From positions 1 to 59,084 of IMG/VR virus record IMGVR_UViG_3300047552_000148: DNA of 59,084 nt; one strand, given 5' to 3'. The stretch's first letter is position 1. Each line of letters opens with the position of its first letter. The position numbers and the translations under genes were made by a program. Below are positions 1-44,273 of this stretch, piece after piece. The DNA comes from a virus. Lineage: Duplodnaviria > Caudoviricetes. The notes under the pieces were generated by a model, which did no database searches, was not told where the DNA came from, and saw nothing but the letters and a program-made list of their open reading frames with translations.

Positions 1-9
1 TAGCTTTGC

Positions 10-99
10 TCATAGCATCCTCCCAGCAATCACGCCCATTGCGTACCCAATTGCAAACACAGTGACTGGGTGTGCCAGTGCGTCAATGAGTTTCTTCAT
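10..99 (-). CDS. 29-aa hydrophobic peptide, allele A ([29 protein letters not shown])
   Basis: Translated by hand; GGAG upstream of the ATG; stop overlaps the next ATG (ATGA). Confidence 0.6.
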   Translation of the reverse strand: MKKLIDALAHPVTVFAIGYAMGVIAGRML

Positions 100-187
100 T
101 GTCAATCTCCATAAAGTCTACACTCTCACTGTAATAGCCATTACTTGTACCATACCAACGAACATCAACATATCCCTTAGCTGTAGC
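61..187 (+). repeat. Direct terminal repeat, copy 1 (127 nt)
   Basis: Identical to 58958-59084 by direct comparison. Confidence 0.97.
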
Positions 188-493
188 AAACTTATAGAAT
201 GTCCATGTGAAGCTGTCTTGATATTCAGGAACAACTACACCGTCTGGATTCACTTGCGTGTGGACAACTTCTTCAGCCAACAAAATTGGAGAGCCCACTA
301 GGTCGTCTAAGTCTCCAACAATGTCTTCAATGTAGACATCCTCGCAGCATTCTTGGCAGTGTGTCAGTACATACTGTTTACCGTTGTCTAGTGTGAACAG
401 CAAGTCTTGGTCTTTAATGACCTCTACAGCTTTCAATGTAGTGCCAAGCAGCATGGATAGTTTAGCTTCGTTGTTAAATATATATTTCATCAT
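83..493 (-). CDS. Conserved phage hypothetical protein (HxQxCCE...SNGYYSE family)
   Basis: 136-aa ORF; AGGAG RBS; motifs QECCEDV and [10 protein letters not shown] are typical of a widespread phage family. Confidence 0.8.
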   Translation of the reverse strand: MMKYIFNNEAKLSMLLGTTLKAVEVIKDQDLLFTLDNGKQYVLTHCQECCEDVYIEDIVGDLDDLVGSPILLAEEVVHTQVNPDGVVVPEYQDSFTWTFYKFATAKGYVDVRWYGTSNGYYSESVDFMEIDNEETH

Positions 494-499
494 AGCTCC

Positions 500-637
500 T
501 TAGCTTAACCACCAAAACAAAGACACTATCGCCGCCACCATTGCAACAATGCCTACAACAAAGAATATTGCCGCCATATCAGCAACCCAATCATCATCCG
601 CTACACCATAATTGTAGCCACCGTTATCGTTAAACAT
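500..637 (-). CDS. Small membrane protein (45 aa)
   Basis: Hand-translated MFNDNGG...AAIFFVVGIVAMVAAIVSLFWWLS; fills the gap between neighbours. Confidence 0.6.
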   Translation of the reverse strand: MFNDNGGYNYGVADDDWVADMAAIFFVVGIVAMVAAIVSLFWWLS

Positions 638-1494
638 TACGCAATCTCCGTGATGTATTCTGCAACGTCCCACAGTTGCTGATTAATTTCAATGGCTTTC
701 TTGACGCTGTTGATTGGCCGTGCCTTGCGCATTACGCCCTGCGGATGGGTCGCAGACACACTCCGCACCATGGCGTTACCTCTAATAACAGCTTCCTGCA
801 CACGCTGCAACACCTTCCACGCATCATATCCTTCGTCTTCTTTACGGGTAGGCAGCAATGCGTCTTTGGTAGTCTGTGCCACAGCGTAGCAGCCTGTCTT
901 TGCTACGTCTGGATTGTAAGAGTCCCAACGTGTTAGCACACCATTAGCAGCCAAAGAAAAGGCTTGGTCGTGTGTTAATGTTGTAGAACGCATACGCTCA
1001 ATCTTCTCCATCATCTTAGGCAGGTTGGCTACGGTGCTGCGCAGCATTTCTTCAAAGCCATAAATAGCAGAGCGATTGTGATAAACGACGGATGAGAAGC
1101 CATCACCAGCAATGATGCCGTTGGAGCAGATAAAGCGAAAGGCTCCAGCGTGCAGCTTCACAGCACCAGTGCCATCGTGGCTGTTGTACAACACAATTTC
1201 GCTGCGAAACTCTTTAGCATCAGCATCACAAATGTCAGAGCGATGGCTGAATGCAACTAGATGATGTGCATGCTCAGCACCTTCAGCCTTGCGGCTACGC
1301 TTCTGTGCTGCCTGCGTAGGGAAGTAGCCATAGTCTGCCATAACAGGCAACAAATCGGCTGTATGCAGAGCCACATAGCGGTCAGTCAAGTGGCCTGCTT
1401 TGCTATGTGCGAACACGGCAGGAGCGCGTGTTTGAATGTCAGCGTTGGAGAGAATGCCGTTGTTGGCTGCGCGGGAGAAGATTAGATGTGCCAT
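637..1494 (-). CDS. DUF932/DUF945 family protein
   Basis: NSHDGTGA...AGAFRFICSNG signature; AAGGA RBS. Confidence 0.85.
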   Translation of the reverse strand: MAHLIFSRAANNGILSNADIQTRAPAVFAHSKAGHLTDRYVALHTADLLPVMADYGYFPTQAAQKRSRKAEGAEHAHHLVAFSHRSDICDADAKEFRSEIVLYNSHDGTGAVKLHAGAFRFICSNGIIAGDGFSSVVYHNRSAIYGFEEMLRSTVANLPKMMEKIERMRSTTLTHDQAFSLAANGVLTRWDSYNPDVAKTGCYAVAQTTKDALLPTRKEDEGYDAWKVLQRVQEAVIRGNAMVRSVSATHPQGVMRKARPINSVKKAIEINQQLWDVAEYITEIA

Positions 1495-1530
1495 TTTGTT
1501 TTCCTTTAGGAAGTTGTTGAAGAGGTGTGT

Positions 1531-1559
1531 AGATTAACTGTTTTATTCTGCTTAGTCAA
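1531..1559 (-). promoter_or_regulatory. Putative sigma70 promoter TTGACT-17-TAATCT
   Basis: Intergenic, upstream of the DUF932 gene, 17-nt spacer. Confidence 0.55.
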
Positions 1560-1560
1560 A

Positions 1561-1791
1561 TTATTTCTTTGATTGTTGTGTCTTAGCAACAAGAGGGTTC
1601 ACCCATGTGAATGCTGCTAAGTGGACAACATCACCGAACATGTTGAAACAAAGGCTGTACATGCCATCTATGTGCGAAAAAAAGAACACCTCTTTGGATG
1701 GTGTTGCTTGGATGTAGCTTTTGTTTGGCACTTTGTAGAGAGGTATAGTGTCTTGGATGTCGAAGTCTGCAATGTCAATAGCCTGTAGCAT
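1561..1791 (-). CDS. Hypothetical protein
   Basis: 76-aa ORF with AGGAG RBS. Confidence 0.7.
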   Translation of the reverse strand: MLQAIDIADFDIQDTIPLYKVPNKSYIQATPSKEVFFFSHIDGMYSLCFNMFGDVVHLAAFTWVNPLVAKTQQSKK

Positions 1792-2238
1792 TTATAGCTC
1801 CTTATAAAAACGATGGTTAGAAATTGTCAAAGTTTGCTTCATCTTTTTAGCCCACACCGGACGACTCTTTCTATGATGATAGTGTGTAGCACCACCAGTG
1901 ATATCGTCAGCGCTCACAGCCAGTGCCACGGTGGAGAATAGCTGTTCTGTGTCTTCAGTCAATGGCTTAGCTTTGTCTTTGATGGTCCAGCTAAATTGCC
2001 GTGGCTTATAAACAACAGAACAAACATCTTCGCCAGACTTAGCAGCCCTGTTCAGCGTTACATGCACCACTGCTGTGACACCTGCTGCGCCTTCGCCTCT
2101 GGCTTCGTGGTAGGCGTTAGCAAGTAGGCACTGTAGCTGCTGTAGCGAGGATGTAGAAGGCACTGCTTCGACTGTCTCAGGCTGTTGATGCGTCAGCGCT
2201 GCCAGTAAAGCCAGTGCCACAACGGAGCGCTTAAGCAT
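1792..2238 (-). CDS. SleB-like cell wall hydrolase (Hydrolase_2); start revised to ATG 2238
   Basis: CLLANAYHEARGE, V.LNR, QFSW, TGGATHYH, HRFY motifs; N-terminal hydrophobic segment. Confidence 0.9.
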   Translation of the reverse strand: MLKRSVVALALLAALTHQQPETVEAVPSTSSLQQLQCLLANAYHEARGEGAAGVTAVVHVTLNRAAKSGEDVCSVVYKPRQFSWTIKDKAKPLTEDTEQLFSTVALAVSADDITGGATHYHHRKSRPVWAKKMKQTLTISNHRFYKEL

Positions 2239-2518
2239 TAACAGGCTTACCTGTAACGTACACACGCTCACCATTGCAAGCCAGTGCCACAATGGAATTG
2301 ACATTAATCGAGCGATAGCCTTTAGCGTTTACATCGTAGGCAATGATGTATTGATCACGATTGACGGTACAGAGCCCACCCTTGAGCGCTTTAGTAACAC
2401 CAGTGCGACCAACTAGTTTGCGAAGGCTTCCGTCTTTTTTGATGAAGCTAACAGAAAAGAAACGTCCGTTGCTGTTGGCAATGGCGGTGGAAATAATGCT
2501 GCTAAGAGATGTTGACAT
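2231..2518 (-). CDS. SH3/WYL_2-like small protein
   Basis: FFSVSFIKKDGSLR...YDV...GYRSIN pattern; GGAG RBS. Confidence 0.7.
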   Translation of the reverse strand: MSTSLSSIISTAIANSNGRFFSVSFIKKDGSLRKLVGRTGVTKALKGGLCTVNRDQYIIAYDVNAKGYRSINVNSIVALACNGERVYVTGKPVNA

Positions 2519-2613
2519 AAAAACTCCGTTGGTTGTTTAGCTTGATAGACTACTCTGCCCTATGCAAAACAGTCTAGCAAGCCCTGTGAAGGGCCTGTGC
2601 CACAAAGGGCTAG

Positions 2614-2895
2614 TTATAGGGGCGTTGTTGGCTTGAAGCTCTCATACGTACGTATGCGGCTTGGTTTGTTGGTGTGCTTATTAACCCATTTGATGCTGGT
2701 GCCCCAGCAATGTAACTCGGTGACTAATAAGTGCAAATCCTCATCCTCTTCTAAATAAACATAATCACCTCGTTGATATGAATACTCAGATATTAGATTT
2801 TCAATGTTGAGATTCTGCAACACTGACCGCTTAACCTTACCCCATGCGTGAGATGGGTCAATGTACAGGATGATGGTGAAGTGCTTATTATTCAT
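2614..2895 (-). CDS. Conserved phage hypothetical protein (DPxHxW...YLEED)
   Basis: 93-aa ORF with the DPSHAW and VYLEEDED motifs. Confidence 0.7.
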   Translation of the reverse strand: MNNKHFTIILYIDPSHAWGKVKRSVLQNLNIENLISEYSYQRGDYVYLEEDEDLHLLVTELHCWGTSIKWVNKHTNKPSRIRTYESFKPTTPL

Positions 2896-2900
2896 TTCAA

Positions 2901-3101
2901 TTAACCTTTAGCATAAGCATTAAACAAACTATCAAATTCAGCCTTATATCCAAGCTGTGCCAACTTACGACCCAGTGCCACAATGCTATCTCGCTGGTCT
3001 TGGCCTTTCCTGTAATAGCGGCTATCATCACTACGTTGATAATACCAGTCGTGGCCTTTAAGTTGGCGCTCTAGTTCGATTAATAGTTCGGTGTGAGACA
3101 T
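2901..3101 (-). CDS. Hypothetical protein (HDWYY..SDD)
   Basis: 66-aa ORF, AAGGA RBS. Confidence 0.7.
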   Translation of the reverse strand: MSHTELLIELERQLKGHDWYYQRSDDSRYYRKGQDQRDSIVALGRKLAQLGYKAEFDSLFNAYAKG

Positions 3102-3114
3102 AAAATATCCTTAT

Positions 3115-3351
3115 TTAAAATGGTGCGTCTTCAATTGGAGCGGGGTGCAGTGGCGGTGGTGTATTATCTCGTTTAGTCTGTGCCACAGCGGGGAAAGGCC
3201 AGTTATTCAACACATCAACCTGCTTCTGTGCGTCTGCTTTGTTGATAAAGTCACTTGCGCCAGTGCCACTTACCCACACAATGCGAGTTTCATAATAGCC
3301 TTTTACAATGAAATAGCGACCAGTGGCTTCGCTTTGTATAATGTGCCACAT
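3115..3351 (-). CDS. Hypothetical protein
   Basis: 78-aa ORF in the minus-strand early operon. Confidence 0.65.
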   Translation of the reverse strand: MWHIIQSEATGRYFIVKGYYETRIVWVSGTGASDFINKADAQKQVDVLNNWPFPAVAQTKRDNTPPPLHPAPIEDAPF

Positions 3352-3357
3352 AATATA

Positions 3358-3510
3358 TCAAACCTTATGAAGTTGTGAAACCAGTGCCACAGCGTATTTA
3401 CGGGCAGCATTGTCGCCTAAGCCACGGCGTTTTGCGCGTTTATATTCGGAGAACACTGCCCATGCATATCCGTGGGTTTCGATGTTGCTTAGAATTCGGA
3501 ATGTGACCAT
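3358..3510 (-). CDS. Small hypothetical protein (50 aa, MVTFRIL...)
   Basis: Hand-translated; strong AAGGAG RBS. Confidence 0.6.
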   Translation of the reverse strand: MVTFRILSNIETHGYAWAVFSEYKRAKRRGLGDNAARKYAVALVSQLHKV

Positions 3511-3603
3511 TTTGTTTTCTCCTTAGAAAAGTTAGCTAAACTGAATAGACTTTGATTAAATCTATTCGGGTTAGCCAGTGCCACTAAGGGCACTAGCATG
3601 GGT

Positions 3604-4467
3604 TTAATGCATAGCAATGGCGATAGTGACGCCCTTAAGGCTTTGCAGTCCGCAGGCGTGACCTTTACCAGTGCAAGTGCCACATTTACCGGGGCAAGGA
3701 AACACTTTACATGTAACATTGTCGCGGATAGCCTTAGCATTAGCTACAGTGCCGTGTTCGGACGATTTTACTTTATGCCCTACATTGACAGCGATAAACT
3801 CGCCACGAGTGATAGGCAAAGCTTTAATGCGTTCTACTGTAGCATTTTCGCTATTGTGTCCGCCTGATATGTTCAAGACGTAATTAGGCGCAAGGGTATT
3901 ATTGGCAACACTGTTAGAATGCAGTATTTGCTTGAAGCTTTTAGAATACCCATAAGCTTTAATATCTGACCTAAATTGCAACAATTGATTCCAGAAATCA
4001 AAAGTGTCAGAGCTATCAAAGTCACCATCAACATAAAGACGCAAAGTAACATTTTCGGGCAGTGCCAAGAAAGCTTGCGACAATGCAATGCTATTAAAGC
4101 GCTGCAAATACGTGTTCTGCACTTGCCGGGCGAATGCGTCAGGATAGCACCATGCTGTAAAACTGTAGCAATAGAGCAAGCATTCACCAGCACCGGGGCA
4201 TGTAACGGCGGGTAGTACGCTATAGGAATAGAACGGAAGCTTGCTATTGCCCTTTGCAAAGATTTTGTATAAGGGCTTTTTAGTTGCAAATATATTTGCA
4301 AGCTTGGCGAAGCTTCGCCGCCATGCCACACCATTAAATGCTGGGTCACATTGTAGAGATAGCAATGCTTTAGATATTTCATTGTCGCCACATGTTGCAA
4401 CAATTACGGCGAAGTCTTGAAGCTTGGCAAATTTGATAGCTGTGGGCGCGAAGTTTTTAGTTTGCAT
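3604..4467 (-). CDS. Gp88-like protein (mycobacteriophage gp88 family, Cys-rich, radical-SAM-like)
   Basis: GNSKLP, TCPGAGECLLYCY, RLYVDGDF and a C-terminal CPGKCGTC; AAGGA RBS. Confidence 0.7.
   Translation of the reverse strand: MQTKNFAPTAIKFAKLQDFAVIVATCGDNEISKALLSLQCDPAFNGVAWRRSFAKLANIFATKKPLYKIFAKGNSKLPFYSYSVLPAVTCPGAGECLLYCYSFTAWCYPDAFARQVQNTYLQRFNSIALSQAFLALPENVTLRLYVDGDFDSSDTFDFWNQLLQFRSDIKAYGYSKSFKQILHSNSVANNTLAPNYVLNISGGHNSENATVERIKALPITRGEFIAVNVGHKVKSSEHGTVANAKAIRDNVTCKVFPCPGKCGTCTGKGHACGLQSLKGVTIAIAMH
4284..4319. repeat. Two adjacent perfect palindromes (TTGCAAATATATTTGCAA; GGCGAAGCTTCGCC)
   Basis: 4284-4301 (18 bp) and 4306-4319 (14 bp), read directly. Confidence 0.9.
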
Positions 4468-4469
4468 TT

Positions 4470-6075
4470 TGTTTTCCTTTGGAAATCTGCATCACGTTGT
4501 GTGCTGCATTGGGTTGAATTATGCACAATGTTTGCGACAATGCAAGACGTAAACGCGACCTATTCTTGCATATCTGCGACATGTTGCATAAATACAACAA
4601 GTGATGTTGCTTCGCTGTTGCTGGGTTGTCTATATAGCGACTCGGCGATGTAGGCGTTGTGTTTTGTTGTGGTGTATGGCTTGCAAGGCTTCTAAGCAAT
4701 GGGGAGTGGATTAGGTTGCAACATTGTCTTATATGCTTTTTGATATATTGAATATGATCTGTATAGTCTAAAGTGTATACCGCCTAGTCTTTTCTTGACC
4801 AAATGGTCAGGATTTATACAGGGCGTTTCAACATCCTATAAATATCAACTGTTTTTGAATCAGTTTTCTAGATTGTCGTAAGTGCTTGATTTTGCTAGTC
4901 TTTTTTGCTTTGCTAGTAAATCATACGCCTAGTATCTGATCTCACTTTACCCTGAATCAACCCCTTATCTGCCCTATATAGTGACATCGCGCCATCACTG
5001 GGGGCAGGTATGGGCCACCCCCCGGTAGCGCGTACGTTGTACATGGTGAAGCACACAGATCAGGAAAATGAAGTTGTTAACCACATCGTCAAATCTGCCT
5101 CTTTTTTAAGCAGATGTGTACGACCACACAGCGTTCCAGCAAGTGTGAGCGTTAACAATGCTGCACTGCGACATTTAAGTCTTTGTTGCAAATCTACAAC
5201 AGCATAGCTAACCCACCCATCTTCGCCTATACTGCGATGTTGATCTACAAAGCTATGCAGCCGTGATGTCCAATGTCACACCTGCTTTGTTCCCATCAGA
5301 GCAAATCTAAGCTGTTCCTTTAGCTTTGTAAGCGTTTCTGTTCTCATAAGAGCAAATATCTGCTATCTCATTTGTTGTAAAACGTCAACAACTTTGTTGT
5401 AGCGAAACAACAACATAGGGTTTTTATATTTGACAAAATCACTTTTTTATGCTATACTTTAGTCTATATAGACGATGTAGACAAAGAAGTCTTCAACGTA
5501 ACAGGTAAGCTCTGTTACGCTAAGTTGTCTCTAAGCAGCCCTAGACCGGCTCCAACTTAGATTAAACAATAAGTTTAATAAATAGATAACTAAGTTGCTA
5601 ACGATGAACTAATTAGCTATATAGCTACCAAGCAATCTAAGTTGCTAAGAAGTATGTGGTAGTCTATATAGCCTACTTAGACATTAACAGATGTTGATGA
5701 AATATACAGAGAATATTTTGTTGTTATCTAAGTTGTTTCTAAGTAGTCTAATTAGCTATATAGTTCTATATTGAAAACAATGCGCATAAAAGATAAGACG
5801 TATTGAGCGATATAGACCTATATAGTGGAACGATTTAAACATTAACAGAAATAGCTATTGATTGTTTACTAAGAAGATAGCTTCTTTTGTTTCCTAAATT
5901 GAAACCTAAATGGTTTCTCTTTTGTTTATCTAAGTAGAAACTAAGTTGTTCAAACAATTGATATTGCTGTACAATTGGTGTACACTATCTGTACAGTCTA
6001 TATAGATCTTTCAAACATGCACATCATTTACCCGTTGTTGTTTCTCAACATCTTCTTTTCCTTCTTCTTTGTCTA
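4470..6075. other. Large, mostly non-coding divergent control region (candidate origin or packaging terminus)
   Basis: Strand switch; AT-rich; 8x CTATATAG, 5x TAAGTTG, G5/C6 box. Confidence 0.7.
5430..5458 (+). promoter_or_regulatory. Consensus-like sigma70 promoter TTGACA-17-TATACT with extended -10 TG
   Basis: TTGACA 5430-5435 and TATACT 5453-5458, facing the structural arm. Confidence 0.75.
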
Positions 6076-6336
6076 ATGAGCAAACGTAAGAGCTTCCCAC
6101 CATTGCTCTCAACAAGAGACGAAGTAGCTTCTTACGGCTTAGTTAATGTATGGCCTTACAACATCAACATAGAAGCCTATGTTGCTCTTCACAACGATAA
6201 GCTGGATAAGCTGCCTCACATTCCTCACAGCGCCGTCTTCTATGTTAGGAACTTGCTTGAGGCAGAGACGGGCTATTACTTCCCGCTAGACATGGTGGAG
6301 GCTGCTATGGTGGCTGAGGGATGGAGAGGGCGCTAG
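6076..6336 (+). CDS. Conserved phage hypothetical protein
   Basis: 86-aa ORF (IPHSAVFYVR), first gene of the + arm. Confidence 0.6.
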   Translation: MSKRKSFPPLLSTRDEVASYGLVNVWPYNINIEAYVALHNDKLDKLPHIPHSAVFYVRNLLEAETGYYFPLDMVEAAMVAEGWRGR

Positions 6337-6518
6337 CGGCAATGTCGTAAGGCTGCAAGTAGCTTGCTACGACATCGACATTAACAGACATTGATTCACC
6401 ACCATCTCTCCCATAGTCCGCAAACTAAGGAATGTGTTGTTTGTTTGTTCTTTTCGTTTATAACATTGAAGACTATTCGTAACATTGACGTTGTTACATT
6501 TTTACTAAGGACATTTAT

Positions 6519-6884
6519 ATGGCTACCTCTGCTGAGAAAGTATCGAAATATCGTGAGCTTGCTAAAGACAAGTCTCTTCCGCAAGCTGTGCGTGATCAAT
6601 ACGACACTAAAGCCACAGCGCTGGAGCAGAAGGCTTATGAAGAAACTAAGGCAGGTAAGAGTGTTAGCAATGTTCCTGAAGGAATGAAACGTGAAGGCTT
6701 TGCTAAGGGTGGTGTTGTCGCAAAGGCTCCGGTTGGTCTAAATAAGAAGGCTACGCCTGCTGCTTCTAAGACACCGGCAGTTAAGACTAATGTAGCTGTG
6801 TCCAAAGTGTCTGCTCCCAAAGTTGCTCCTAAGAAGGTGATGTTGGCTAAGGGTGGCAGTGTTGCTAAGAAGGGGTGCAAATAA
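6519..6884 (+). CDS. Basic Lys/Ala-rich protein with two AKGG motifs
   Basis: 121-aa ORF, AAGGA RBS. Confidence 0.8.
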   Translation: MATSAEKVSKYRELAKDKSLPQAVRDQYDTKATALEQKAYEETKAGKSVSNVPEGMKREGFAKGGVVAKAPVGLNKKATPAASKTPAVKTNVAVSKVSAPKVAPKKVMLAKGGSVAKKGCK

Positions 6885-7591
6885 TGGCTACACGCAATGT
6901 TCGTCAAGGTCCAGTGTTTGGTGATGACCGTCCTGTTCAACGTAATAAAGAAACAACCAATCCAGACAAACCCAATCGTTCTCCCGGTGAAAGCAATGCT
7001 GCTCGGCGCATGCCTTCTGTTCGTGAAGACTTTGTTAAGTCTGCAAGCAAAGACATAGAACGTGTTGGTAAAGGACTAGAGCCAACAGGTAAGTCTGCTC
7101 TAACCCGCTCTGCACAACAGAACGCTGCTGGTCGTGCCATTTTGCGTACGGCTGGTCGTGTTGGTTATGGCGCTGCTGCGCTTGAAGTTGGTTATGCGGC
7201 TGGTCGAGAGATTGACAAGCACACAGGTGTTGGTAAAGAGATTGTTGAAGGCTCTGGTCTTGGTAAAGTAGTAGACCGTGCTGTGAATATGCGGGATAAG
7301 GTGGAGCTTACTAAGGAGGCTAAAGATCGCTTGGCTAAGAAGGACGAGCCTGAACAAGCCAGCTACAGCAATGAAGGTCGCCGTGTACGTGAACCTGCTG
7401 TAGAGAAGAAGGAAGAGACTAAGGCTGCTCCTAAGAAGGCTCCTTCAATGAAAGAAGAAGGCGTACGCGAAGGCTCCAACAAGAACATTGATGATGAAAC
7501 TCGTCAACGTGCTATGAAGGCTGCCGAGTTTGCTAAGGGTGGCTATGTTGGCGCTGCACATAATGTGTTTGCTAACAAGTTTAAGAAATAG
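6884..7591 (+). CDS. Hypothetical protein with a C-terminal FAKGG motif
   Basis: TAATG overlap with the previous stop gives start 6884. Confidence 0.8.
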   Translation: MATRNVRQGPVFGDDRPVQRNKETTNPDKPNRSPGESNAARRMPSVREDFVKSASKDIERVGKGLEPTGKSALTRSAQQNAAGRAILRTAGRVGYGAAALEVGYAAGREIDKHTGVGKEIVEGSGLGKVVDRAVNMRDKVELTKEAKDRLAKKDEPEQASYSNEGRRVREPAVEKKEETKAAPKKAPSMKEEGVREGSNKNIDDETRQRAMKAAEFAKGGYVGAAHNVFANKFKK

Positions 7592-8815: not shown

Positions 8816-10802
8816 AACTGCTGTTGAAAACACAGCTACACCCGCAGAAACACCAGCGCCAGTAGAGCAAATCCACAAGAATGTGGTGTTTCGGCCTAAT
8901 CCGGGACCACAAACAGCCTTCTTAGCTGCTTCTGAGCGGGAAGTGCTCTATGGTGGGGCCTCGGGCGGAGGTAAAAGCTACGCTATTCTTGCTGATCCTA
9001 TGCGGTATATGCATCATCCGCAGTTTTCTGGGTTGATATTGCGTCACACAACAGAAGAATTGCGTGAACTTATCTGGAAAAGCCAAGAACTCTACCCCAA
9101 AATCTACCCCGGCATCAAATGGAGTGAGCGAAAGCTGCAATGGGAGACGCCGCAGGGTGGTAGATTGTGGATGTCGTACCTTGACAGGGACGAAGATGTG
9201 ATGCGGTATCAGGGCCTTAGCTTCTGCGTAGCTAAAGGCACACCTGTGAAGCTATCTGATGGCTCTTACAAGAACATTGAAGACATTTCTGTAGACGACA
9301 CTGTAGCAACACTGGAAGGCTCCGGCAAAGTTGTGTGGAAGTCTTCTGTTATGAAGAAGAAATGTGTTGTTGCTACTACATACACATCATCAGGCAAGCT
9401 AATTGGTACGCAGGTACACCCACTGGACCACTGCTTCTCTTTGTTGAGTGATAAAGCCATTCAAAACACAGACGAAGCCAGAAAGTTTGTTGCTGCTGAT
9501 ATTCAGTGGAAGTCTTATCTTGATGTGCCAGATGCGAATGGAATGTTTCCAGTTGCATTATCGTATAACGATGGGCTTAGTTACGAACAAACATCTTATG
9601 ATCATCCATACACAGGAGAACAGCGCCCTATTCAGGTATGGCTAAGCGTTGGTGTTGTTAGATTCACCAAGATTGATGACTTGTTTGTTGAAGTGTACGA
9701 TCTCACTGTAGATAAACACAACCACTACATTACAGGTAATGGTCTTATCAACAAAAACTGCTACATCGCATGGGACGAGCTAACCCAATGGCCTACCCCG
9801 TTCGCATACAACTATATGCGTTCGCGTTTGCGTACCACGGCACCTGATCTTCCGTTGTCTATTAGAGCTACAACGAATCCGGGTGGGCCGGGGATGGCTT
9901 GGGTTAAAAAGATGTTTGTTGACCCTGCGCCATTTAATACTCCGTTTTACGCTACAGATATTGAAACAGGTAAACCTCTGGTCTATCCAAAAGGACACAG
10001 TAAAGAAGGTGAATATCTTTTTAAGCGTAGGTTTATTCCTGCGAAGCTGTCAGATAATCCATCACTTGCTGCCTCTGGTGACTACGAGAGCATGTTACTA
10101 TCTCTACCAGAACAACAACGCAAACAGTTGTTAGAAGGAAATTGGGACATCGCTGAAGGTGCTGCCTTCTCTGAATTCAACAGGGCCATCCACGTTGTAG
10201 AGCCTTTCACAATACCGTCTAGCTGGCCTCGGTTTAGAGGATGTGATTATGGATACAGTAGTTTCAGTGCTGTGCTTTGGTTTGCTGTTGCACCTGATGA
10301 CCAGCTAGTCTGCTATCGTGAACTATATGTAACCAAGATGGTTGCAGAAGACTTAGCTGATGCGGTTATGGAAGCTGAGAAACATGAGAAGGTGCGGTAT
10401 GGTGTACTTGATAGTAGCTGCTGGCACAATCGAACTGGCGGAGGCCCTTCTATTGCTGAGCGTATGATTGTTAGAGGGTGTCGCTGGCGTCCTGCTGACC
10501 GTAGTGCTGGTAGCCGTGTTGCTGGTAAGAACGAAATACACCGAAGGCTACAAGTTGATCCTTACACGGAAAAGCCAAGACTTGTGTTTTTTAATAACTG
10601 TACACACATCATTGCTGATCTACCCACTCTTCCGTTAGATAAAACAAATACTGAAGATATTAATACAAAGGTTAAAAATGATCATGGGTACGATGCCCTA
10701 CGTTACTCTGTGATGAGTCGTCCCCGTAGTGGTATATTTGACTTTGATACTTCTTCACAACGCAGTGGGTTTATCCCTTCTGATCCTTACATGGGCTATT
10801 GA
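8643..10802 (+). CDS. terL: Terminase large subunit containing a mini-intein
   Basis: Walker A GGASGGGKS, Walker B WDELT, TTNPGG, nuclease D-YG and DHGYDALRY; GTG start with AAGGA (start uncertain). Confidence 0.95.
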   Translation: MNKPLEENRLLIESLPEGTKKRLKKRKSTKNASAKAQTTSSIVIVTEPSNSLSATTPETAVENTATPAETPAPVEQIHKNVVFRPNPGPQTAFLAASEREVLYGGASGGGKSYAILADPMRYMHHPQFSGLILRHTTEELRELIWKSQELYPKIYPGIKWSERKLQWETPQGGRLWMSYLDRDEDVMRYQGLSFCVAKGTPVKLSDGSYKNIEDISVDDTVATLEGSGKVVWKSSVMKKKCVVATTYTSSGKLIGTQVHPLDHCFSLLSDKAIQNTDEARKFVAADIQWKSYLDVPDANGMFPVALSYNDGLSYEQTSYDHPYTGEQRPIQVWLSVGVVRFTKIDDLFVEVYDLTVDKHNHYITGNGLINKNCYIAWDELTQWPTPFAYNYMRSRLRTTAPDLPLSIRATTNPGGPGMAWVKKMFVDPAPFNTPFYATDIETGKPLVYPKGHSKEGEYLFKRRFIPAKLSDNPSLAASGDYESMLLSLPEQQRKQLLEGNWDIAEGAAFSEFNRAIHVVEPFTIPSSWPRFRGCDYGYSSFSAVLWFAVAPDDQLVCYRELYVTKMVAEDLADAVMEAEKHEKVRYGVLDSSCWHNRTGGGPSIAERMIVRGCRWRPADRSAGSRVAGKNEIHRRLQVDPYTEKPRLVFFNNCTHIIADLPTLPLDKTNTEDINTKVKNDHGYDALRYSVMSRPRSGIFDFDTSSQRSGFIPSDPYMGY
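9225..9758 (+). mobile_element. Mini-intein (178 aa) in TerL
   Basis: Starts CVAKGT, ends VYDLTV...HYI..GLINKN followed by Cys; no endonuclease domain. Confidence 0.9.
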
Positions 10803-11464
10803 TGTTAGAAATAATCTCAAGAGATGAAGCTAAAGAAAAAGGGCTTACTCATTACTTTACTGGTGTACCTTGCTTTCGTAATCACCTAACTGTTCGTTAT
10901 GTTTCTACTCACCAGTGTTATGAATGCCATAAACTAAAAAGAACAAAGTATGTTCGTGTAGTTAAAGACAAACACGCTAGAGCTATAGCTAAAGAAAATA
11001 ACGAGCTTACTTATAAGTCTGATAAGCCATGTAAAAATAATCACGACAGTCTTCGCTATACATGTAACGGAATGTGCCTAGCCTGCCTAGATGCTATTGT
11101 TAGTACAGATACTTATAAAAGCAAAACAAAAGCAAGCCGTGAGCGCAACAAGGATAAAAAAGCAGCATACGACAAGCTGTTTGATGCTAGAAACAAAGAA
11201 TATCGTGACCGATTAAAAGCAGACAACAGAGCAAAGCGCCTGCACCGTAGGGTTAAATGGGAGCAAGAACTTACCGAGTTTGTACTTGAAGAAGCTTTTA
11301 ATCTTACGAAACTTAGAAGGGAAGCCACTGGAATAGACTGGCACATGGATCATGTAATTCCATTGTGCGGTGATAAAGTTTCTGGTCTGCATGTATGGAA
11401 CAACTTTGCTGTTATTCCTGCGAAGACTAATCTTCAAAAGAACAACAAGTATGAAGTTGTTTAA
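10799..11464 (+). CDS. Free-standing HNH homing endonuclease
   Basis: WHMDHVIPL...SGLHVWNN...NLQKNN; two N-terminal PCxxxH/CxxC repeats; AT-rich. Confidence 0.9.
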   Translation: MMLEIISRDEAKEKGLTHYFTGVPCFRNHLTVRYVSTHQCYECHKLKRTKYVRVVKDKHARAIAKENNELTYKSDKPCKNNHDSLRYTCNGMCLACLDAIVSTDTYKSKTKASRERNKDKKAAYDKLFDARNKEYRDRLKADNRAKRLHRRVKWEQELTEFVLEEAFNLTKLRREATGIDWHMDHVIPLCGDKVSGLHVWNNFAVIPAKTNLQKNNKYEVV

Positions 11465-16129: not shown

Positions 16130-16208
16130 TTTTAACAGAGCGAAAACGACGACGGTCGCTGATAGTGCCAACTCACTGTCTAGCTCTTTAATCTAGTTGG
16201 AGATTGAA

Positions 16209-16766
16209 ATGGAAGTAAAAACCTGTACCTCTTGTGGGGAAACGAAGGCGTTATCTGAGTTTGGCACATCAGGAAGACATGATGGTAAACACAAACCAAA
16301 GTGCTTAGTATGTTGTGCAAAGTTGTTACGTGAATATAGACTAGCAAATCCCGAACGTGTTAGGGAACGGGATCGTAAACAATACATCAAAGACAGAGAA
16401 AAGATTCGTATCAAGAACTTGCGCAGAAGTCACGGTATAACAATGGAGAAGAAGTTTTCTTTGTTGTTGAATACAGCGATTAAACGCAAGGAAAAACGAG
16501 GACAGAAGATAGAGGTTTTTATTTCTCTTCAAGACATCAAAGATGTTTATGAGAAACAAGAAGGTCGATGTGCTTATACAAAGCTGCCTCTCACAAGTGA
16601 GCCGCACCAGCTTAATACAATAAGTCTCGACAGGATAGATAGCAACAAACACTATACTGTTGATAACATTCAACTTGTGGGTATTGCTATAAATAGGATG
16701 AAGCTAGATCATACTGAAGAACAGTTTATTCAGCTTTGTCGGTTAGTAGCAGAGAACAGTAAGTAG
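16209..16766 (+). CDS. Free-standing HNH-type homing endonuclease
   Basis: KTCTSC..EF zinc finger; QEGRCAYT, SLDRIDS..HY..DN; GGAG RBS before ATG 16209. Confidence 0.88.
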   Translation: MEVKTCTSCGETKALSEFGTSGRHDGKHKPKCLVCCAKLLREYRLANPERVRERDRKQYIKDREKIRIKNLRRSHGITMEKKFSLLLNTAIKRKEKRGQKIEVFISLQDIKDVYEKQEGRCAYTKLPLTSEPHQLNTISLDRIDSNKHYTVDNIQLVGIAINRMKLDHTEEQFIQLCRLVAENSK

Positions 16767-17985: not shown

Positions 17986-18408
17986 ATGTTTCCTAACCTC
18001 TCACCCACTCATTCTGTGTACAAAGATCGTACATGTCTTGAGTGTGGTGAGTACAAAAGATATACAGAGTTCTCGTTTAGTAAGCACCCTAGAGCGCCGG
18101 AAGGATATGCTTCTGTACCAAGATGCAAACCTTGTCATGCGATATGGAAAAACAAAATCCATATTAAAAGAACATACGGACTTGAATGGGAAGATTATGT
18201 AAATCTGATGGATAAACAAGAAGGTAAGTGTTATCTCTGTGGATCATCTGGTAGTGGCAAAGATCAAAGACTTGTTGTTGATCATAGCCATACTACCGGA
18301 GAAGTTAGGGGACTTCTTTGCTGGAGTTGCAATGTTGGTATCGGACTGTTTAAGGAAGATACTGACTTGCTACGAAAAGTGATTAAGTACATTGATCGTG
18401 ATTTGTAA
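17986..18408 (+). CDS. Free-standing endonuclease VII-type homing endonuclease
   Basis: QEGKCYLC, VDHSHTTGEVRGLLCWSCNVGIG. Confidence 0.9.
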   Translation: MFPNLSPTHSVYKDRTCLECGEYKRYTEFSFSKHPRAPEGYASVPRCKPCHAIWKNKIHIKRTYGLEWEDYVNLMDKQEGKCYLCGSSGSGKDQRLVVDHSHTTGEVRGLLCWSCNVGIGLFKEDTDLLRKVIKYIDRDL

Positions 18409-28727: not shown

Positions 28728-29155
28728 ACAGCGAAGTATTTGACATACTTAAGGAGCTACTATCATGGGCATCAGGTGTTGCATTAGCTTTGGTGGCATG
28801 GGCGTGGAAGACCAACGCCGAAGAGCATAAGATGTTACATGCTCAGATAAAAGAGGCTGCTGATAAAACCGCTGACGTTAAACAACGCACTAGCGATGGT
28901 TATTCAACATTGAATGATCGTATTATGGAACACATGGATGCACAGCAACGTGAAATGCGTGCGTTTGTTATGACGGAAGATGCTAAGTTGCTTGCAGAAA
29001 CAACAATCAATCGCAGCCACATTGCCAAAATCTTTGATAAAATAGAAGCTCAAGCACAGCGTAGTGAAGACAGGCATGTTGAAACACTACAGGCTATACA
29101 TACATTGGCAACAACAATGCACACAGCATTGGCAACAAAGGCAGATAAACAATGA
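28724..29155 (+). CDS. Membrane-anchored coiled-coil protein next to the lysis cassette
   Basis: N-terminal transmembrane segment; GAGG RBS before ATG 28724. Confidence 0.65.
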   Translation: MNSEVFDILKELLSWASGVALALVAWAWKTNAEEHKMLHAQIKEAADKTADVKQRTSDGYSTLNDRIMEHMDAQQREMRAFVMTEDAKLLAETTINRSHIAKIFDKIEAQAQRSEDRHVETLQAIHTLATTMHTALATKADKQ

Positions 29156-29580
29156 TTTCATTGAGCGCACACTTTTCACTTGAAGAAGCTACAGCGTCAC
29201 AGACAGCAGCACGGCTCGGTATTATGAATGTTCCGTCTGATGCTGTTCTTGCTAACATGAAGAAGGCTGCGTTGCAGCTAGAGCTAGTACGTATGGAGCT
29301 TAATAGCAACGCCATACACATTAGCTCTTGGTATCGCAGCCCTGCTTTGAATGCTGCTGTTGGTAGCAAGCCTACGTCTGCACACATCACAGGCTGGGCT
29401 ATCGACTTCACATGTCCTACGTTTGGCAAGCCTGATCGAATCATTCAACGTATTCTTGCTTCCAAAGTAGACTTCGATCAGGTGATAAACGAGTATGACT
29501 CTTGGGTACATATCAGCTTTGATGGTAATCGTAAGCAGGCTTTGGTGATTGATCGTAATGGAACGAGAGCGTTTGTATGA
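29152..29580 (+). CDS. Endolysin, peptidase M15A family
   Basis: HFSLEE, ISSWYRS, SAH..G.AID, WVHIS. Confidence 0.9.
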   Translation: MISLSAHFSLEEATASQTAARLGIMNVPSDAVLANMKKAALQLELVRMELNSNAIHISSWYRSPALNAAVGSKPTSAHITGWAIDFTCPTFGKPDRIIQRILASKVDFDQVINEYDSWVHISFDGNRKQALVIDRNGTRAFV

Positions 29581-29975
29581 GCGACATTACAGGCATCGGT
29601 GCTGTAGCCGACTTAGTAAACACAGCCATTAATAAGATATGGCCTGACAAGTCTGAGCAAGAGAAGCAGGCTTTAGCTGCTGCTGTGATGGTGGTGCAGG
29701 GTCAGATTGACATTAACAAAGAAGAGGCTAAGTCTCCGAGTATATTTGTTTCTGGAGCAAGGCCGTTCATTCTTTGGACATGTGGTGCTGGTTGTGCTTG
29801 GAACTGGGTTGGGCTGCCTGTAGCAAAGTTTGCTCTGCTTATGGCAGGCATCAGTGTACAAATATCTCCTGCTGATCTCTCTGAAATGATGCCCTTGTTG
29901 TTAGGTATGTTAGGCTTGGGCGGGCTTCGTACAGTTGAGAAACTAAACGGTGTTGCAGCAGTAACACATAAATAA
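29577..29975 (+). CDS. Holin (GTA 3TM-like)
   Basis: SGARPFI.W and LGMLGLGGLRT.EK; adjacent to the endolysin. Confidence 0.85.
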   Translation: MSDITGIGAVADLVNTAINKIWPDKSEQEKQALAAAVMVVQGQIDINKEEAKSPSIFVSGARPFILWTCGAGCAWNWVGLPVAKFALLMAGISVQISPADLSEMMPLLLGMLGLGGLRTVEKLNGVAAVTHK

Positions 29976-33339: not shown

Positions 33340-33811
33340 AGAAACATCGTTCATGTCTATACCTGCTGGTGTGTCGTTGACTGACGAGCCGAAGAGTCGT
33401 GCTTGGCTACGTCCTCCAAAGGCTGTCAATGTGTCTGAGGTTGCTCAGATGTACATTGATAAGCTAAGCTCTGAATCTACACTGAATGACCTGCTTGATG
33501 TTGTTGAGTCTGGTGTGCCTTTGGCTACAGCAGCAGAGGCGCTGATGATGACACATGTGCATCAAGGTGAACACACCATTGACGCTGGTATTATGGTGAT
33601 GCCTGTCATCATTGAGATGCTGGTAACTATTGCAGACATCCACGGTGCGGAGTATGTCGTCTTTGGTACAAAGCCTGAGAAGACACCAGATCGGATTATC
33701 CGTGCAGCTATTAAGCAGGCAAGATCACCTGAAGCCCCTGAAGAAGCTGCTAAAGAAAAAGCACCAAAGGTTTCATTGTCTGGTTTGATGGCACGTAAAG
33801 GAGAACAATAA
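33326..33811 (+). CDS. Putative internal virion protein
   Basis: IPAGVSLT.EP...W.RPP; C-terminal GLMAR. Confidence 0.65.
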   Translation: MATLKETSFMSIPAGVSLTDEPKSRAWLRPPKAVNVSEVAQMYIDKLSSESTLNDLLDVVESGVPLATAAEALMMTHVHQGEHTIDAGIMVMPVIIEMLVTIADIHGAEYVVFGTKPEKTPDRIIRAAIKQARSPEAPEEAAKEKAPKVSLSGLMARKGEQ

Positions 33812-35262
33812 TGGGATTTAATTTGCTTGCTGCTGCTGCGGGTGCTGCTAGTGCTGTTGCTGATAAGCTAGACGAAGATCGGAAGTATGCACAACTACGC
33901 GGCACTGAAGCTGCTAAAGGTTTGTATGCTCGTTACACTAAGGTGATGGAAGAGAATAGGAAGAAACAAGACGAGACTGCTGAACGTGTTAGCCTTCTTA
34001 GTGCTGCTTTCCCTGACGCTTCTGATGCTGAGATTCAAACACTAGCAGCAAAGCCTGCTGTCTTTGATCTTGTAGCAACCCAAATCAAAGAAGGAACATT
34101 CGACAAGTCTATCAAACTGCCAACACTCACTGGTCTTGCTACTAACAACGTAGAGACAACTGCTGTTGATCGTCTCAAGGAAATGCCCGATCTTCTTAAT
34201 CAAGTCAGAGAAAAGTATGCACCAGCTACACCGTCTGTTGAAAAACAAACAGAAGAAGGCTTCTTTGCTAAGAATCGCCGCCGTGGATATGAGACAGGGT
34301 TGATGGAAACGGCACAGGCTCTTGGTGTTTCTGTTGAAGAGTTACAGAAGACTAAGGCGTGGCAACCTAAGTATGCTGATAACAAGGCTGACTATTCTGG
34401 GTTTATTCAAAAGAAACAAGACACCTTCACAGGTATTGAAAACAAGGCTAAGACAGAACGTGTCAACGAACTCGTTTCTGGTGGTATGTCTAAACCAGCA
34501 GCTTTCCAGAAAGTTAATGAAGAATTTAAGGCTAAGGAAAAAGAAGACTACGCTTCTGCTACTTTCACTTTGATTAAAGACATCACTGCGCTTAAACAAC
34601 AAGGTAAGAAAGATGAAGCCGCTAAGCTCCAGTTTGTGTTGGACGAGTATAAACGACAGCATTCCACAAAAGACGGTAAAGAAGACGGAGCAGCTAAAGC
34701 AGCTTCTAACAATCTAATCTCTTCTGCAATCAACCGGACGTACTTGAACGCAATCTCTGCTGCTCTTCCTGTAGGTACAGTGACTATTGTTGACGGCAGT
34801 CCACAGATTAGTTCAATGGTGTCTGATGAAAAGAAACAAGACGCAATCACTAAGATTCGTAAAGCGCTGTATCAGGCTAACACGACCAATGGTGTTCCTA
34901 AATCTGAAGGACATCTTCTGGGGTTGTCTCAAGCTGGCATCCTGTTTGATACACAAGGTAAACTTCTTACGAAAGGTATTGTTGATGATGAAGCACCTAG
35001 TGCTACTACGTCAACAGGTTTAGGTGCTCGTCCGGCGTCAACAGCAGGCTTGTACGACCCACAGAATAAACTTACCAGCCCTAAAGAAACTAAACAGCCT
35101 GCGACTCAAACAACTACCCCCGCACCTGCTAAATCGTTTGAAGATCAAGCAGCTAATGCTTTAAAAGGTGGAGCATCTTTAAAGGCAGTTAAAGACCTGT
35201 ACAAAAGGAAGACAGGTAAAGAACTACCCTCTACCATTGCGCAGCTTTCAACTACTGAATAA
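33811..35262 (+). CDS. Putative internal virion protein
   Basis: 483-aa helical protein with an Ala/Gly N-terminus. Confidence 0.65.
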   Translation: MGFNLLAAAAGAASAVADKLDEDRKYAQLRGTEAAKGLYARYTKVMEENRKKQDETAERVSLLSAAFPDASDAEIQTLAAKPAVFDLVATQIKEGTFDKSIKLPTLTGLATNNVETTAVDRLKEMPDLLNQVREKYAPATPSVEKQTEEGFFAKNRRRGYETGLMETAQALGVSVEELQKTKAWQPKYADNKADYSGFIQKKQDTFTGIENKAKTERVNELVSGGMSKPAAFQKVNEEFKAKEKEDYASATFTLIKDITALKQQGKKDEAAKLQFVLDEYKRQHSTKDGKEDGAAKAASNNLISSAINRTYLNAISAALPVGTVTIVDGSPQISSMVSDEKKQDAITKIRKALYQANTTNGVPKSEGHLLGLSQAGILFDTQGKLLTKGIVDDEAPSATTSTGLGARPASTAGLYDPQNKLTSPKETKQPATQTTTPAPAKSFEDQAANALKGGASLKAVKDLYKRKTGKELPSTIAQLSTTE

Positions 35263-39427: not shown

Positions 39428-39900
39428 ATTGTTTCCTTTAATGCTGATATGGGGAGATTAAAGCAGCTTGATTTTACGACATACCCGTTAGATTCATCTA
39501 CAGTTCCTTTCTCAAGAAACGTAGCATCAACAAAGTATTGTTGTTTTTCGTACACACCAAGCCACCACGCTACAGAGAAATCGTTCTTCACTCGTACGAA
39601 TGCGTAGTAGTTGCAGTCTTGCTTTGTATTAAGCTGAGCAACACTGCAAGCATAGTGAGGCAGCGGCACAGAACTTGTGAGTTTAGTCTTTACGTCTACA
39701 GTGGCACCATTAGGCAGCACTAAGTCGTAGTCGTAAGTGTTAGCTATTTCACCGCCTAATACTTGTTGTGCTACAGCCTCACCAACAAAGCCAGCCATGT
39801 TCCCTGCACCACTGGTGATGCTATTACGTAGCTGACCCATTGCTGCTGCTTTGTCTCTAGCTTCAACTAACATTGATGGTGTGATTACTACCTCAATCAT
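39424..39900 (-). CDS. Putative PD-(D/E)xK nuclease-like protein
   Basis: GE......YDYDL......VDVKT. Confidence 0.55.
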   Translation of the reverse strand: MIEVVITPSMLVEARDKAAAMGQLRNSITSGAGNMAGFVGEAVAQQVLGGEIANTYDYDLVLPNGATVDVKTKLTSSVPLPHYACSVAQLNTKQDCNYYAFVRVKNDFSVAWWLGVYEKQQYFVDATFLEKGTVDESNGYVVKSSCFNLPISALKETI

Positions 39901-40403
39901 TGATGTTCCTCGCGCAGAGACTTAGGTGCAAACTCACCATGATATTGTTTACGAATCTCGTCTGCCCTATCACATGCTTCCTTAAAGTCTGCGTAGTAGC
40001 CAAAGCGTTTTACTTTACCGTTGACACCAACACGCACTCCACATTTGCCTCTACGCTTATCAAAACTAACTCCGGGTTTACCTGACGTGTTGTTTCTATT
40101 CTTTCCTCTGTTCATACTATTTTGAGAAGTCGTTGCTTCTCGTAAATTTTCGATTCTATTGTTATCACATATACGATTGATGTGGTCAATCACCTTAGGA
40201 AGATATCCGTGGTGATACAGGAAGACTAAACGATGCTCGTACCACAGCTTATTAAACACAGACCCTCTTCTATACCCTGTAGCTTTATCAACACTCCCAA
40301 ATCTATCCCCTACATGTACACTCCTAGCTGTCCTAACCTTCCAATATAGACCTCCGTTCTTATACTCAAAAAGTTCTTTAGCCTTTCCTTGTGTTAGAGT
40401 CAT
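39897..40403 (-). CDS. HNH-AP2 homing endonuclease
   Basis: HRLV...IDHIN...NNRIENLR; NTSGKPGVS...AP2-like tail ending HGEFA. Confidence 0.9.
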   Translation of the reverse strand: MTLTQGKAKELFEYKNGGLYWKVRTARSVHVGDRFGSVDKATGYRRGSVFNKLWYEHRLVFLYHHGYLPKVIDHINRICDNNRIENLREATTSQNSMNRGKNRNNTSGKPGVSFDKRRGKCGVRVGVNGKVKRFGYYADFKEACDRADEIRKQYHGEFAPKSLREEHQ

Positions 40404-44106: not shown

Positions 44107-44273
44107 AGATAGCGATCTGTCTTTATGCCGGAAAAGAGTACGCCTGCAAGAATAAGAAACACGATTGCGATTGAAGCAATTGATGGTGCAAACACAACCC
44201 ACCAAGACCAATCAATGTAGTTAAATATCTTTGCACCAACGAAGATGAGTGTGAGAGTGTGGAAGTAGTTCAT
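44103..44273 (-). CDS. Small membrane protein (56 aa, IDWSWW.V)
   Basis: Hand-translated; ATGA overlaps at both ends. Confidence 0.65.
   Translation of the reverse strand: MNYFHTLTLIFVGAKIFNYIDWSWWVVFAPSIASIAIVFLILAGVLFSGIKTDRYL

Follow-up and report, generated by a model that had tools for sequence, protein, structure and literature searches.

A strand-specific word clustered in the early genes of a freshwater HMO-2011-type phage, possibly a stoperator-like array

In the excerpted account of PMC9283540, the stoperators of mycobacteriophages are asymmetric sites that are bound by a monomeric repressor and block the elongating RNA polymerase in one orientation. Phage tf, as described in the accessible part of PMC3517423, carries 14 copies of a 9-nucleotide (nt) consensus with two degenerate positions; they lie on one strand, are all nicked, and are denser in one half of the genome. 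For the HMO-2011-type phages, the available sections of PMC9038755 name an integrase (Int) and report that one int-bearing member integrates, and these sections mention neither a repressor nor a control element. Here we describe a dense, oriented array of a short word, GTGGCAC in the coding strand, in the early genes of an HMO-2011-type podovirus with an integrase. The DNA analysed, referred to as the window, is the whole of IMG/VR record IMGVR_UViG_3300047552_000148 (59,084 nt), which is rated 100% complete. The word is a real, strand-specific and strongly selected cis-element, and its possible functions are weighed below against the described systems.

An oriented word in the early genes

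The exact 10-mer CCAGTGCCAC occurs seven times in the window, always on the plus strand and between 1920 and 3584, against an expectation of 0.19, and none of 100 shuffles reached seven. Five further plus-strand copies of its core, GTGCCAC, are situated at 876, 2597, 3180, 3343 and 3677, and this strand holds none beyond these. The preliminary description of the stretch, made from its letters and reading frames, had placed all twelve correctly and in one orientation. It had found the core only once elsewhere, where there are two reverse-orientation copies, at 37185 and 39701. Genome-wide counting against a background, which it had proposed as a check, gave a divided answer. The total of 14 cores on both strands of the whole window does not exceed chance (10.15 expected; 14 of 100 shuffles reached 14), whereas 12 of the 14 lie on the plus strand at 876-3683, and this one-strand clustering within 2.8 kilobases (kb), evaluated over 3.9 kb, has a binomial p of 1.3e-16, compared with 3.9e-5 for the best of 22 control windows of the same size. 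The anomaly is therefore the clustering on one strand and not the total. In an unbiased scan of the 7-mers of the window, GTGCCAC ranks first for clustering.

The genes that host the copies lie on the minus strand, so that the word of the coding strand and of the messenger RNA (mRNA) is (T)GTGGCAC(A/T)G(G), and the exact 10-mer reads GTGGCACTGG there. All 12 copies are on the coding strand and share one direction relative to transcription; they are carried by a single transcription unit, and all genes of the region point the same way. A logo built from 57 sites, C(-4)-n-y-T-GTGGCAC-W-G-R-Y, is asymmetric and about 11 nt long, with information of ~18 bits over these 11 nt when summed. In the 20 bases flanking the word on each side, the same logo displays no other conserved element. 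A probe for the word would take the form TGTGGCACTGGC. The twelve sites are listed below, all in minus-strand reading.

876-882 (17-mer 870-886), minus strand: core in the DUF932 gene; coding strand CGCTGTGGCACAGACTA, encoding A-V-A-Q-T
1920-1929, minus strand: exact 10-mer in the SleB-like hydrolase gene, V-A-L; adjoins a three-codon deletion relative to orthologues
2211-2220, minus strand: exact 10-mer in the signal peptide of the SleB-like hydrolase, V-A-L; within an insertion of 4-5 residues that orthologues lack
2281-2290, minus strand: exact 10-mer near the end of the WYL_2 (Sm-like) gene, I-V-A-L-A
2597-2603, minus strand: core GTGGCACAGG in the 95-base gap between genes 2614-2895 and 2231-2518, beside a small hairpin
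2972-2981, minus strand: exact 10-mer in the 66-amino-acid (aa) open reading frame (ORF) 2901-3101, V-A-L
3180-3186 (17-mer 3174-3190), minus strand: core in the 78-aa ORF; the 17-mer is identical to 870-886
3260-3269, minus strand: exact 10-mer in the 78-aa ORF in another frame, S-G-T-G
3343-3349, minus strand: core at the start of the 78-aa ORF in the third frame, ATG-TGG-CAC
3381-3390, minus strand: exact 10-mer near the end of the 50-aa ORF, V-A-L
3575-3584, minus strand: exact 10-mer in the 93-base gap between genes 3604-4467 and 3358-3510; 3589-3594 and part of the copy form a hairpin of 6 base pairs (bp)
3677-3683, minus strand: core in the GP88-like gene, C-G-T-C; probably constrained by the GP88-like protein

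Ten of the copies are thus in genes and two between them (2597 and 3575), and the earlier remark that they fall in several unrelated ORFs, in different frames and in intergenic DNA was borne out by seven unrelated genes, three frames and two gaps. Within genes, the word is read as GTG-GCA-CTG/CAG (V-A-L or V-A-Q) seven times, as xGT-GGC-ACx twice and as ATG-TGG-CAC once. An origin of the array from coding constraints, namely codon bias or recurrent peptide motifs, or by chance has in its favour that 7 of the 10 in-gene copies read V-A-L/Q, that five of the seven exact 10-mers encode V-A-L, and that conserved protein motifs can account for two copies. Against it, ten early genes were shuffled 1000 times, either among synonymous codons or in codon order, and three patterns were counted. 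Synonymous shuffling gave a mean of 1.42 cores (maximum 4) where the coding sequence has 10, 0.29 copies of GTGGCACWG where it has 8, and 0.14 copies of the 10-mer where it has 6; the observed count was reached in 0 of 1000 rounds for each pattern. The corresponding means under codon-order shuffling were 0.53, 0.10 and 0.02, and the early genes encode six V-A-L tripeptides against 0.78 expected. Since the observed counts lie beyond both kinds of shuffle, codon choice and amino-acid order have both been bent to spell the word. An in-frame coding repeat was likewise rejected on the grounds of the three frames, the two intergenic sites and the mutually unrelated genes; moreover, only 4 of the 11 spacings in the array are multiples of 3, compared with 17 of 17 in a true coding repeat. 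Together with the cluster p-values, these results refute the coding explanation, to which we give next to no credence, and the objection that codon and dipeptide bias might produce the motif fails with it.

Three near-copies that had been noted, at 1166, 4059 and 58465, are present as well; those at 1166 and 58465 differ from the word by one mismatch, and that at 4059 by two. The near-copy at 1166 encodes D-G-T-G, a motif kept in five of six DUF932 orthologues and replaced by D-G-S-G in the sixth, and both this near-copy and the copy at 3677 appear better explained by protein motifs. We also note that the 17-mer TAGTCTGTGCCACAGCG, shared by 870-886 and 3174-3190 in two unrelated genes (DUF932 and the 78-aa ORF), contains an 11-bp near-palindrome, CTGTG-C-CACAG.

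Relatives and unrelated genomes

The capsid protein of the phage is 66-70% identical to those of Puniceispirillum phage HMO-2011 and the Roseobacter CRP phages, and its integrase 35-40%. The closest GenBank record, MW202701 from a spring, shares 66% identity in the polymerase, 79% in the capsid protein and 53% in the integrase. Its syntenic early region holds seven coding-strand copies of GTGGCAC in 5.8 kb, mostly as GTGGCACAG, a density of 1.21/kb against 0.10-0.12/kb in the other modules. A search with the DUF932 protein retrieved 26 viral loci. The six closest, L009-L014, contain 4, 8, 9, 4, 6 and 9 forward and 0, 3, 3, 2, 0 and 4 reverse cores, whereas the other 20 loci have 0-2 forward cores. 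Under an order-2 Markov model, the forward counts of L010, L011, L013 and L014 were each reached in 0 of 300 simulations, that of L009 in 5 of 300, and that of L012 in 54 of 300, which is not significant, with L015-L020 at expectation; not all of these loci are independent, since L010 closely resembles L011 and some sites are common to L012-L014. The 9-mer occurs 1-3 times in each of the complete freshwater relatives G410-G412, and in marine HMO-2011 and CRP-1 the word is at background. In the freshwater subclade, the word recurs in the corresponding region and on the corresponding strand; the search for the same clustering in related phages, which the preliminary description had suggested, thus succeeded within this subclade and not in the marine phages.

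Comparison of orthologous genes reveals that the individual sites turn over. At the WYL_2 site, the window has I-V-A-L-A where the orthologues have I-V/L-S-I-S/A (V in three of four, L in one), and at the DUF932 site it has Y-A-V-A-Q-T-T where they have Y/F-A-T-D/E/H-T/H-T, and a single synonymous change would give L009 the word. In MW202701, the SleB-like and 93-aa orthologues carry sites of their own at other places. At a site shared by L009 (6698) and L013 (6878), the variable base swaps Leu and Gln while GTG-GCA is fixed and the adjacent codons differ synonymously. Because the sites occupy differing places in orthologous genes, selection acts on the number of oriented words in the region and not on their positions. 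The sites of the window in the DUF932, WYL_2 and SleB-like genes were gained by amino-acid changes or insertion, with the window lineage the furthest along, while the subclade as a whole keeps the regional density. The earlier proposal that selection is on the nucleic acid and not on the proteins is supported by this turnover as well as by the synonymous shuffles.

Two observations on the relatives stand apart from the word. Early-region words peculiar to CRP-1 (ACACAYT) and HMO-2011 (ACATTGA) were considered and dropped, their p-values being no better than those of the best control windows. In MW202701 (locus L008), tandem units of 8-9 bases (ACTACAGC / ACAGCACT) at 44100-44303, near the start of the early region, are annotated as a coding sequence.

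Unrelated phages were surveyed by scanning IMG/VR for pairs of GTGGCACWG 55-85 bases apart, an insensitive scan in which 80 loci were examined of at least 120 matching stretches. Among these 80, locus L176 has the only cluster that is out of frame, irregular and accompanied by homology to genes of the window, and it is itself a relative (DUF932 47%, GP88-like protein 51% identity). Nearly all the other dense clusters examined are coding repeats. Those in unrelated contigs are in-frame, Gly/Thr-rich repeats, with spacings that are multiples of 3 in 17 of 17 cases in L178, 13 of 13 in L134 and 4 of 4 in L111. Out-of-frame clusters with tight spacings were seen in L105 and L116, and loose clusters in L154, L109 and L181. 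The outcome weakly favours a reader that is tied to the phage lineage. One contig (G004, 49085-49318; L035, 9086-9319) contains twenty tandem 12-bp units with GTGGCAC, which form a (T-T-G-G)n coding repeat in a protein of the structural module; the frame seems to break just past this array, which is unrelated to the early-gene word. A literature search on the word itself gave matches of the primer type only. The scan of bacterial genome contigs by capsid alignment returned only phage-sized contigs in unrelated metagenome-assembled genomes and hence no information on the host.

The early operon and its control region

The array occupies the promoter-near 3.6 kb of a leftward early operon, directly downstream of a divergent control region, in agreement with the initial assignment to early genes. 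All genes between 83 and 4467 lie on the minus strand, and the leftward block extends from 4467 to position 1 and continues, across the record ends, from 59084 to 38736, with accessory early genes followed by integrase, ThyX, a T7-type primase-helicase, DNA polymerase, exonuclease, ribonucleotide reductase and PhoH. The rightward structural block (6076-38675) encodes the small and large terminase subunits, portal, capsid, tail and internal proteins, and the array is separated from the terminase genes by 4-7 kb. The features around the array are as follows.

637-4467, minus strand: promoter-near block of the leftward early operon, with the array
3604-4467, minus strand: GP88-like gene, first in transcription order
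3358-3510, 3115-3351, 2901-3101 and 2614-2895, minus strand: small ORFs in transcription order
2231-2518, minus strand: WYL_2 gene
1792-2238, minus strand: SleB-like hydrolase gene, following WYL_2
1561-1791, minus strand: ORF
637-1494, minus strand: DUF932 gene, following the ORF
4468-6075, no strand: non-coding region of 1.6 kb between the divergent operons, without a copy of the word

The preliminary description had located the cluster beside a putative genome end, in the DNA injected first. This does not hold. The last 127 bases (58958-59084) repeat positions 61-187, which lie inside the DUF7448 gene, and the first 60 bases differ from the stretch that precedes this terminal copy; a repeat of this kind marks a circular assembly that was closed at a single k-mer and has a variant tip. 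As the end repeat is inside a gene, the record ends represent an assembly break in a circular or permuted genome and not physical ends.

The SleB-type cell-wall hydrolase, with its signal peptide (1792-2238), is encoded among the early genes and apart from the lysis cassette at 29152-29975. At least six HNH or endonuclease VII-like genes are present (10799-11464, 16197-16766, 17986-18408, 39897-40418, 45324-45716 and 47373-48050), several being interspersed with structural genes. Probably homing endonucleases, they would be candidates if the word were a nick site. The sequencing runs in which the DNA of the window occurs are freshwater metagenomes, with no RNA run listed among them. No tRNA genes were found in the window, and no near matches to the first 6 kb or to the GP88-like protein among GenBank phages. 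No relatives emerged from peptide-pattern searches for the GP88-like protein in viral contigs or for PhoH and the polymerase in contigs of genomes.

The promoters, and perhaps an origin, are likely to lie in the non-coding region between the operons. All eight CTATATAG palindromes of the window are located in it (4630-6005), usually as GTCTATATAG, together with five CTAAGTTG words at 5520-5941, and three of the four CTATATAG copies of MW202701 lie in the equivalent control region. The palindromes and the CTAAGTTG words are probably operators or promoter elements of a switch. By eye, a likely early promoter is seen on the minus strand at 4505-4600, ~35 bases upstream of the first early gene, with TTGCAT, ~16 bases and CATAAT; it is flanked by two CAT(T)GTCGCA repeats and does not appear in the list of a simple scan. 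The scan of 1-6600 for promoters and terminators gave counts not above those of shuffles. In the divergent control region of L009 (5834-5929), six co-oriented DnaA boxes, five exact TTATCCACA and one mismatched, follow each other with a spacing of 12-21 bases, and L015, a more distant relative of L009, has three at 7175-7205 with a spacing of 11 bases. The boxes suggest a DnaA-dependent origin in the control region of L009. The control region of the window has no exact DnaA box and two copies with one mismatch.

Three known kinds of element were compared with the word and rejected. The DnaA box consensus is TTATNCACA; the complement of the word shares only CCACA with it and has two invariant G where T is required. 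A sigma-54 promoter has TGGCAC at -24 and TTGC at -12, five bases downstream. The word contains TGGCAC, but its TTGC positions hold 0.07-0.40 bits and are mostly A or C. A promoter with a fixed second element was likewise discarded, given the lack of such an element in the logo and a promoter scan that did not exceed shuffles.

Possible functions and comparison with known systems

Our preferred reading, which we hold tentatively, is that the array consists of oriented protein-binding sites that block early transcription in the manner of mycobacteriophage stoperators. The words would be double-stranded DNA sites for one sequence-specific protein, of phage or host, seated on each in a fixed orientation. 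With a dozen such sites in the first 3.6 kb behind the leftward early promoter, an occupied array would form a one-way barrier to RNA polymerase, and the barrier would silence or shut off the early operon, which continues into the integrase and replication genes. Stoperators are the closest match because the word is asymmetric and 11 nt long, its polarity is strict, selection acts on copy number, it belongs to one lineage, and the phage bears an integrase and depends on the host polymerase. Given the integrase and the reported integration of one int-bearing phage of this type, silencing of the early operon would be needed. From this pattern we infer both the protein binding and the roadblock effect.

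Several findings weigh against this reading. No helix-turn-helix or repressor family was recognised in 65 ORFs searched against PHROGs or in 25 + 18 ORFs searched against Pfam, although a repressor with a novel fold could escape such family scans. The control region 4468-6075, where an operator would be expected, has 0 copies of the word; 10 of the 12 copies are intragenic, whereas stoperators occupy short intergenic spaces; and the array is limited to 2.8 kb instead of being genome-wide. Furthermore, orientation relative to transcription is inseparable from orientation relative to the DNA, since all genes of the region are co-directional. Five genes are common to three complete motif-bearing genomes and absent from five motif-free ones, namely WYL_2, the gene of a Lys/Ala-rich protein at 6519-6884, 33811-35262, and the genes of two small proteins, 50875-51021 and 52997-53347, an association that is confounded by shared descent. 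WYL_2 (2231-2518) is itself missing from two motif-bearing loci, L009 and L013, and in the other four no DNA-binding fold is recognisable. The 88-aa form 52997-53263 of the last has unnamed homologues only, and its predicted fold is unusable (predicted local distance difference test score 52.7). Confidence in the stoperator reading is therefore limited by the lack of a repressor and of a promoter site and by sites that are intragenic and local. As a separate observation, gene 6519-6884, the second of the rightward operon, encodes a conserved helical N-terminus followed by a Lys/Ala/Met/Gly-rich tail with (M/A)AKGG repeats, and it is found only in those motif-bearing genomes that cover the region.

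The functions first offered for the cluster were a Chi-like site, a loading site for a translocase or ejection protein, and an antitermination or RNA-binding site; a stoperator-like roadblock and strand-specific nick sites fit at least as well. If the word were the site of a phage nicking enzyme, which we regard as fairly unlikely, the packaged DNA would carry strand-specific nicks as in tf, phiKMV-like phages and T5. The parallel with tf, whose consensus is confined to one strand in the portion of PMC3517423 available, extends to the rarity of the word beyond the array (0 more on that strand and 2 on the other), and the phage encodes at least six HNH or endonuclease VII-like proteins. Twelve sites in 2.8 kb are nevertheless far denser and more local than in any system described, the motif-bearing genomes have no nuclease gene peculiar to them, and extra nicks bring no obvious benefit, yet the lineage gained sites through protein changes. 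At the RNA level, GUGGCAC(U/A)G in the early mRNA might be the target of an endoribonuclease or an RNA-binding protein, acting in shut-off, stabilisation or titration; the model for an endoribonuclease specific to sequences in early transcripts is RegB of T4. This alternative, which we consider unlikely, accords with the confinement of the copies to the transcribed sense strand of one operon, with the selection of copy number, and with a small Sm-like/WYL_2 protein encoded within the array. It is opposed by the absence of a shared fold around the 12 sites, where the mean pairing probability is 0.67 against a background of 0.52 (standard deviation 0.18) and local structures differ, and by a scan of 1-6600 and 53800-56600 against Rfam that returned sub-threshold chance matches only, so that of the RNA site proposed at the outset the general idea survives without a structural or family match. 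The loss of WYL_2 from L009 and L013 speaks against it too, and the A/U ambiguity is unusual for recognition of a single strand, a weak point as coding may favour Leu or Gln.

A Chi-like role would mean that the words are host sites that switch RecBCD/AddAB from degradation to repair, with entry at a DNA end in the vicinity of the packaging or control region, and that they protect the genome or its concatemer. The word is oriented, its copy number is selected while position is free, as expected for recognition that succeeds only sometimes, and the array lies 4-7 kb from the terminase genes. The G+C content of motif-bearing genomes (42.6-46%) also differs from that of motif-free relatives (48.5-48.9%), which suggests different hosts. 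These points have to be set against counts of TGGCACWG in 401 genomes of Gammaproteobacteria and of GTGGCACWG in 301 of Alphaproteobacteria, among which the word is nowhere an outlier, although the true host may not be one of them. The densest genomes reach ~4.4 (Gammaproteobacteria) and 4.6 (Alphaproteobacteria) times the uniform expectation. In stretches of 100-200 kb from four of the densest and of 42 kb from a fifth, the word ranks 143rd to 4744th among 8-mers, agrees with the maximal-order Markov expectation, and has no strand skew, whereas GCTGGTGG, the Chi site of Escherichia coli, is skewed 44:14 in one of the dense genomes. Within the window, GCTGGTGG is unremarkable, with six copies on the plus strand and three on the minus strand. 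Known Chi sites are 5-8 nt long, shorter than a word of 11 nt and ~18 bits. Confinement to 2.8 kb rather than a genome-wide orientation, the lack of irregular clusters in clearly unrelated phages among the loci examined in IMG/VR, and the destruction of the promoter ahead of the first site by an enzyme entering from the control region also count against a Chi-like site, which finds no support in the genomes searched and is quite unlikely. Lastly, the copies could be polar fork-barrier or priming/helicase sites beside an origin in the control region, giving a unidirectional bias or a switch to rolling-circle replication. The DnaA boxes of L009 (six) and L015 (three) make an origin there likely, the phage encodes a T7-type primase-helicase, and in our reading all copies fall on the strand that a leftward fork would use as its lagging-strand template. 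The window, however, has only the two mismatched boxes in its control region, the PHROGs and Pfam scans of its ORFs recognised no terminator-protein gene, and we know of no Ter or primase site that resembles the word; a replication role is improbable.

It is also possible, although doubtful, that the freshwater HMO-2011-type clade uses an undescribed cis-acting system, in which early genes were recoded for a dense one-strand array of 11-nt words and a dedicated factor controls the handling of the first part of the genome through directional entry, strand-specific nicking, one-way replication or operon-wide shut-off; no known signal family would fit the sequence, density and placement. HMO-2011-type phages are abundant in water and their regulation is essentially unknown. 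The array offers a clear and experimentally testable handle. The word has been strong enough to reshape protein sequences. The array also shows that dense regulatory words can hide in coding sequence, where annotation pipelines do not look. Its reader would reveal a new type of lysogeny or shut-off switch in phages of Gram-negative hosts, a new nicking system, a host Chi, or control at the RNA level.

Among the systems to which the array can be likened, Chi sites are also short oriented words whose effect rises with copy number and whose exact position is immaterial. They are defined by excess and skew in the host chromosome, whereas the word of the array has neither in the 702 genomes searched, is longer and belongs to a single region. 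The C1 protein of phage P1 is a monomeric repressor with dispersed asymmetric operators at promoters across the genome. C1 operators resemble the array, as it is proposed to work, in the monomeric repressor and in asymmetric sites at many places of the genome, but they are located at promoters and form no intragenic array. The nick sites of tf, phiKMV-like phages and T5 share with it a short, asymmetric and degenerate consensus that is confined to one strand and rare elsewhere, in podoviruses; in the sections of PMC3517423 accessible they are scattered over tens of kilobases at positions similar among close relatives, whereas the array packs 12 sites into 2.8 kb and its positions turn over. 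Stoperators of Cluster A phages such as L5 and TipsytheTRex are, in the available part of PMC9283540, distributed genome-wide and chiefly within short spaces between genes; they include an operator at the early promoter and are served by a two-domain repressor that comprises a helix-turn-helix and a stoperator domain. This is in contrast to the array, which is packed into 2.8 kb and largely intragenic, with no copy in the control region and no repressor found. The array and these stoperators have in common that one asymmetric word of 11-13 bp recurs many times, that its orientation follows transcription, that the phage is temperate and depends on the host RNA polymerase, and that the word varies by lineage.

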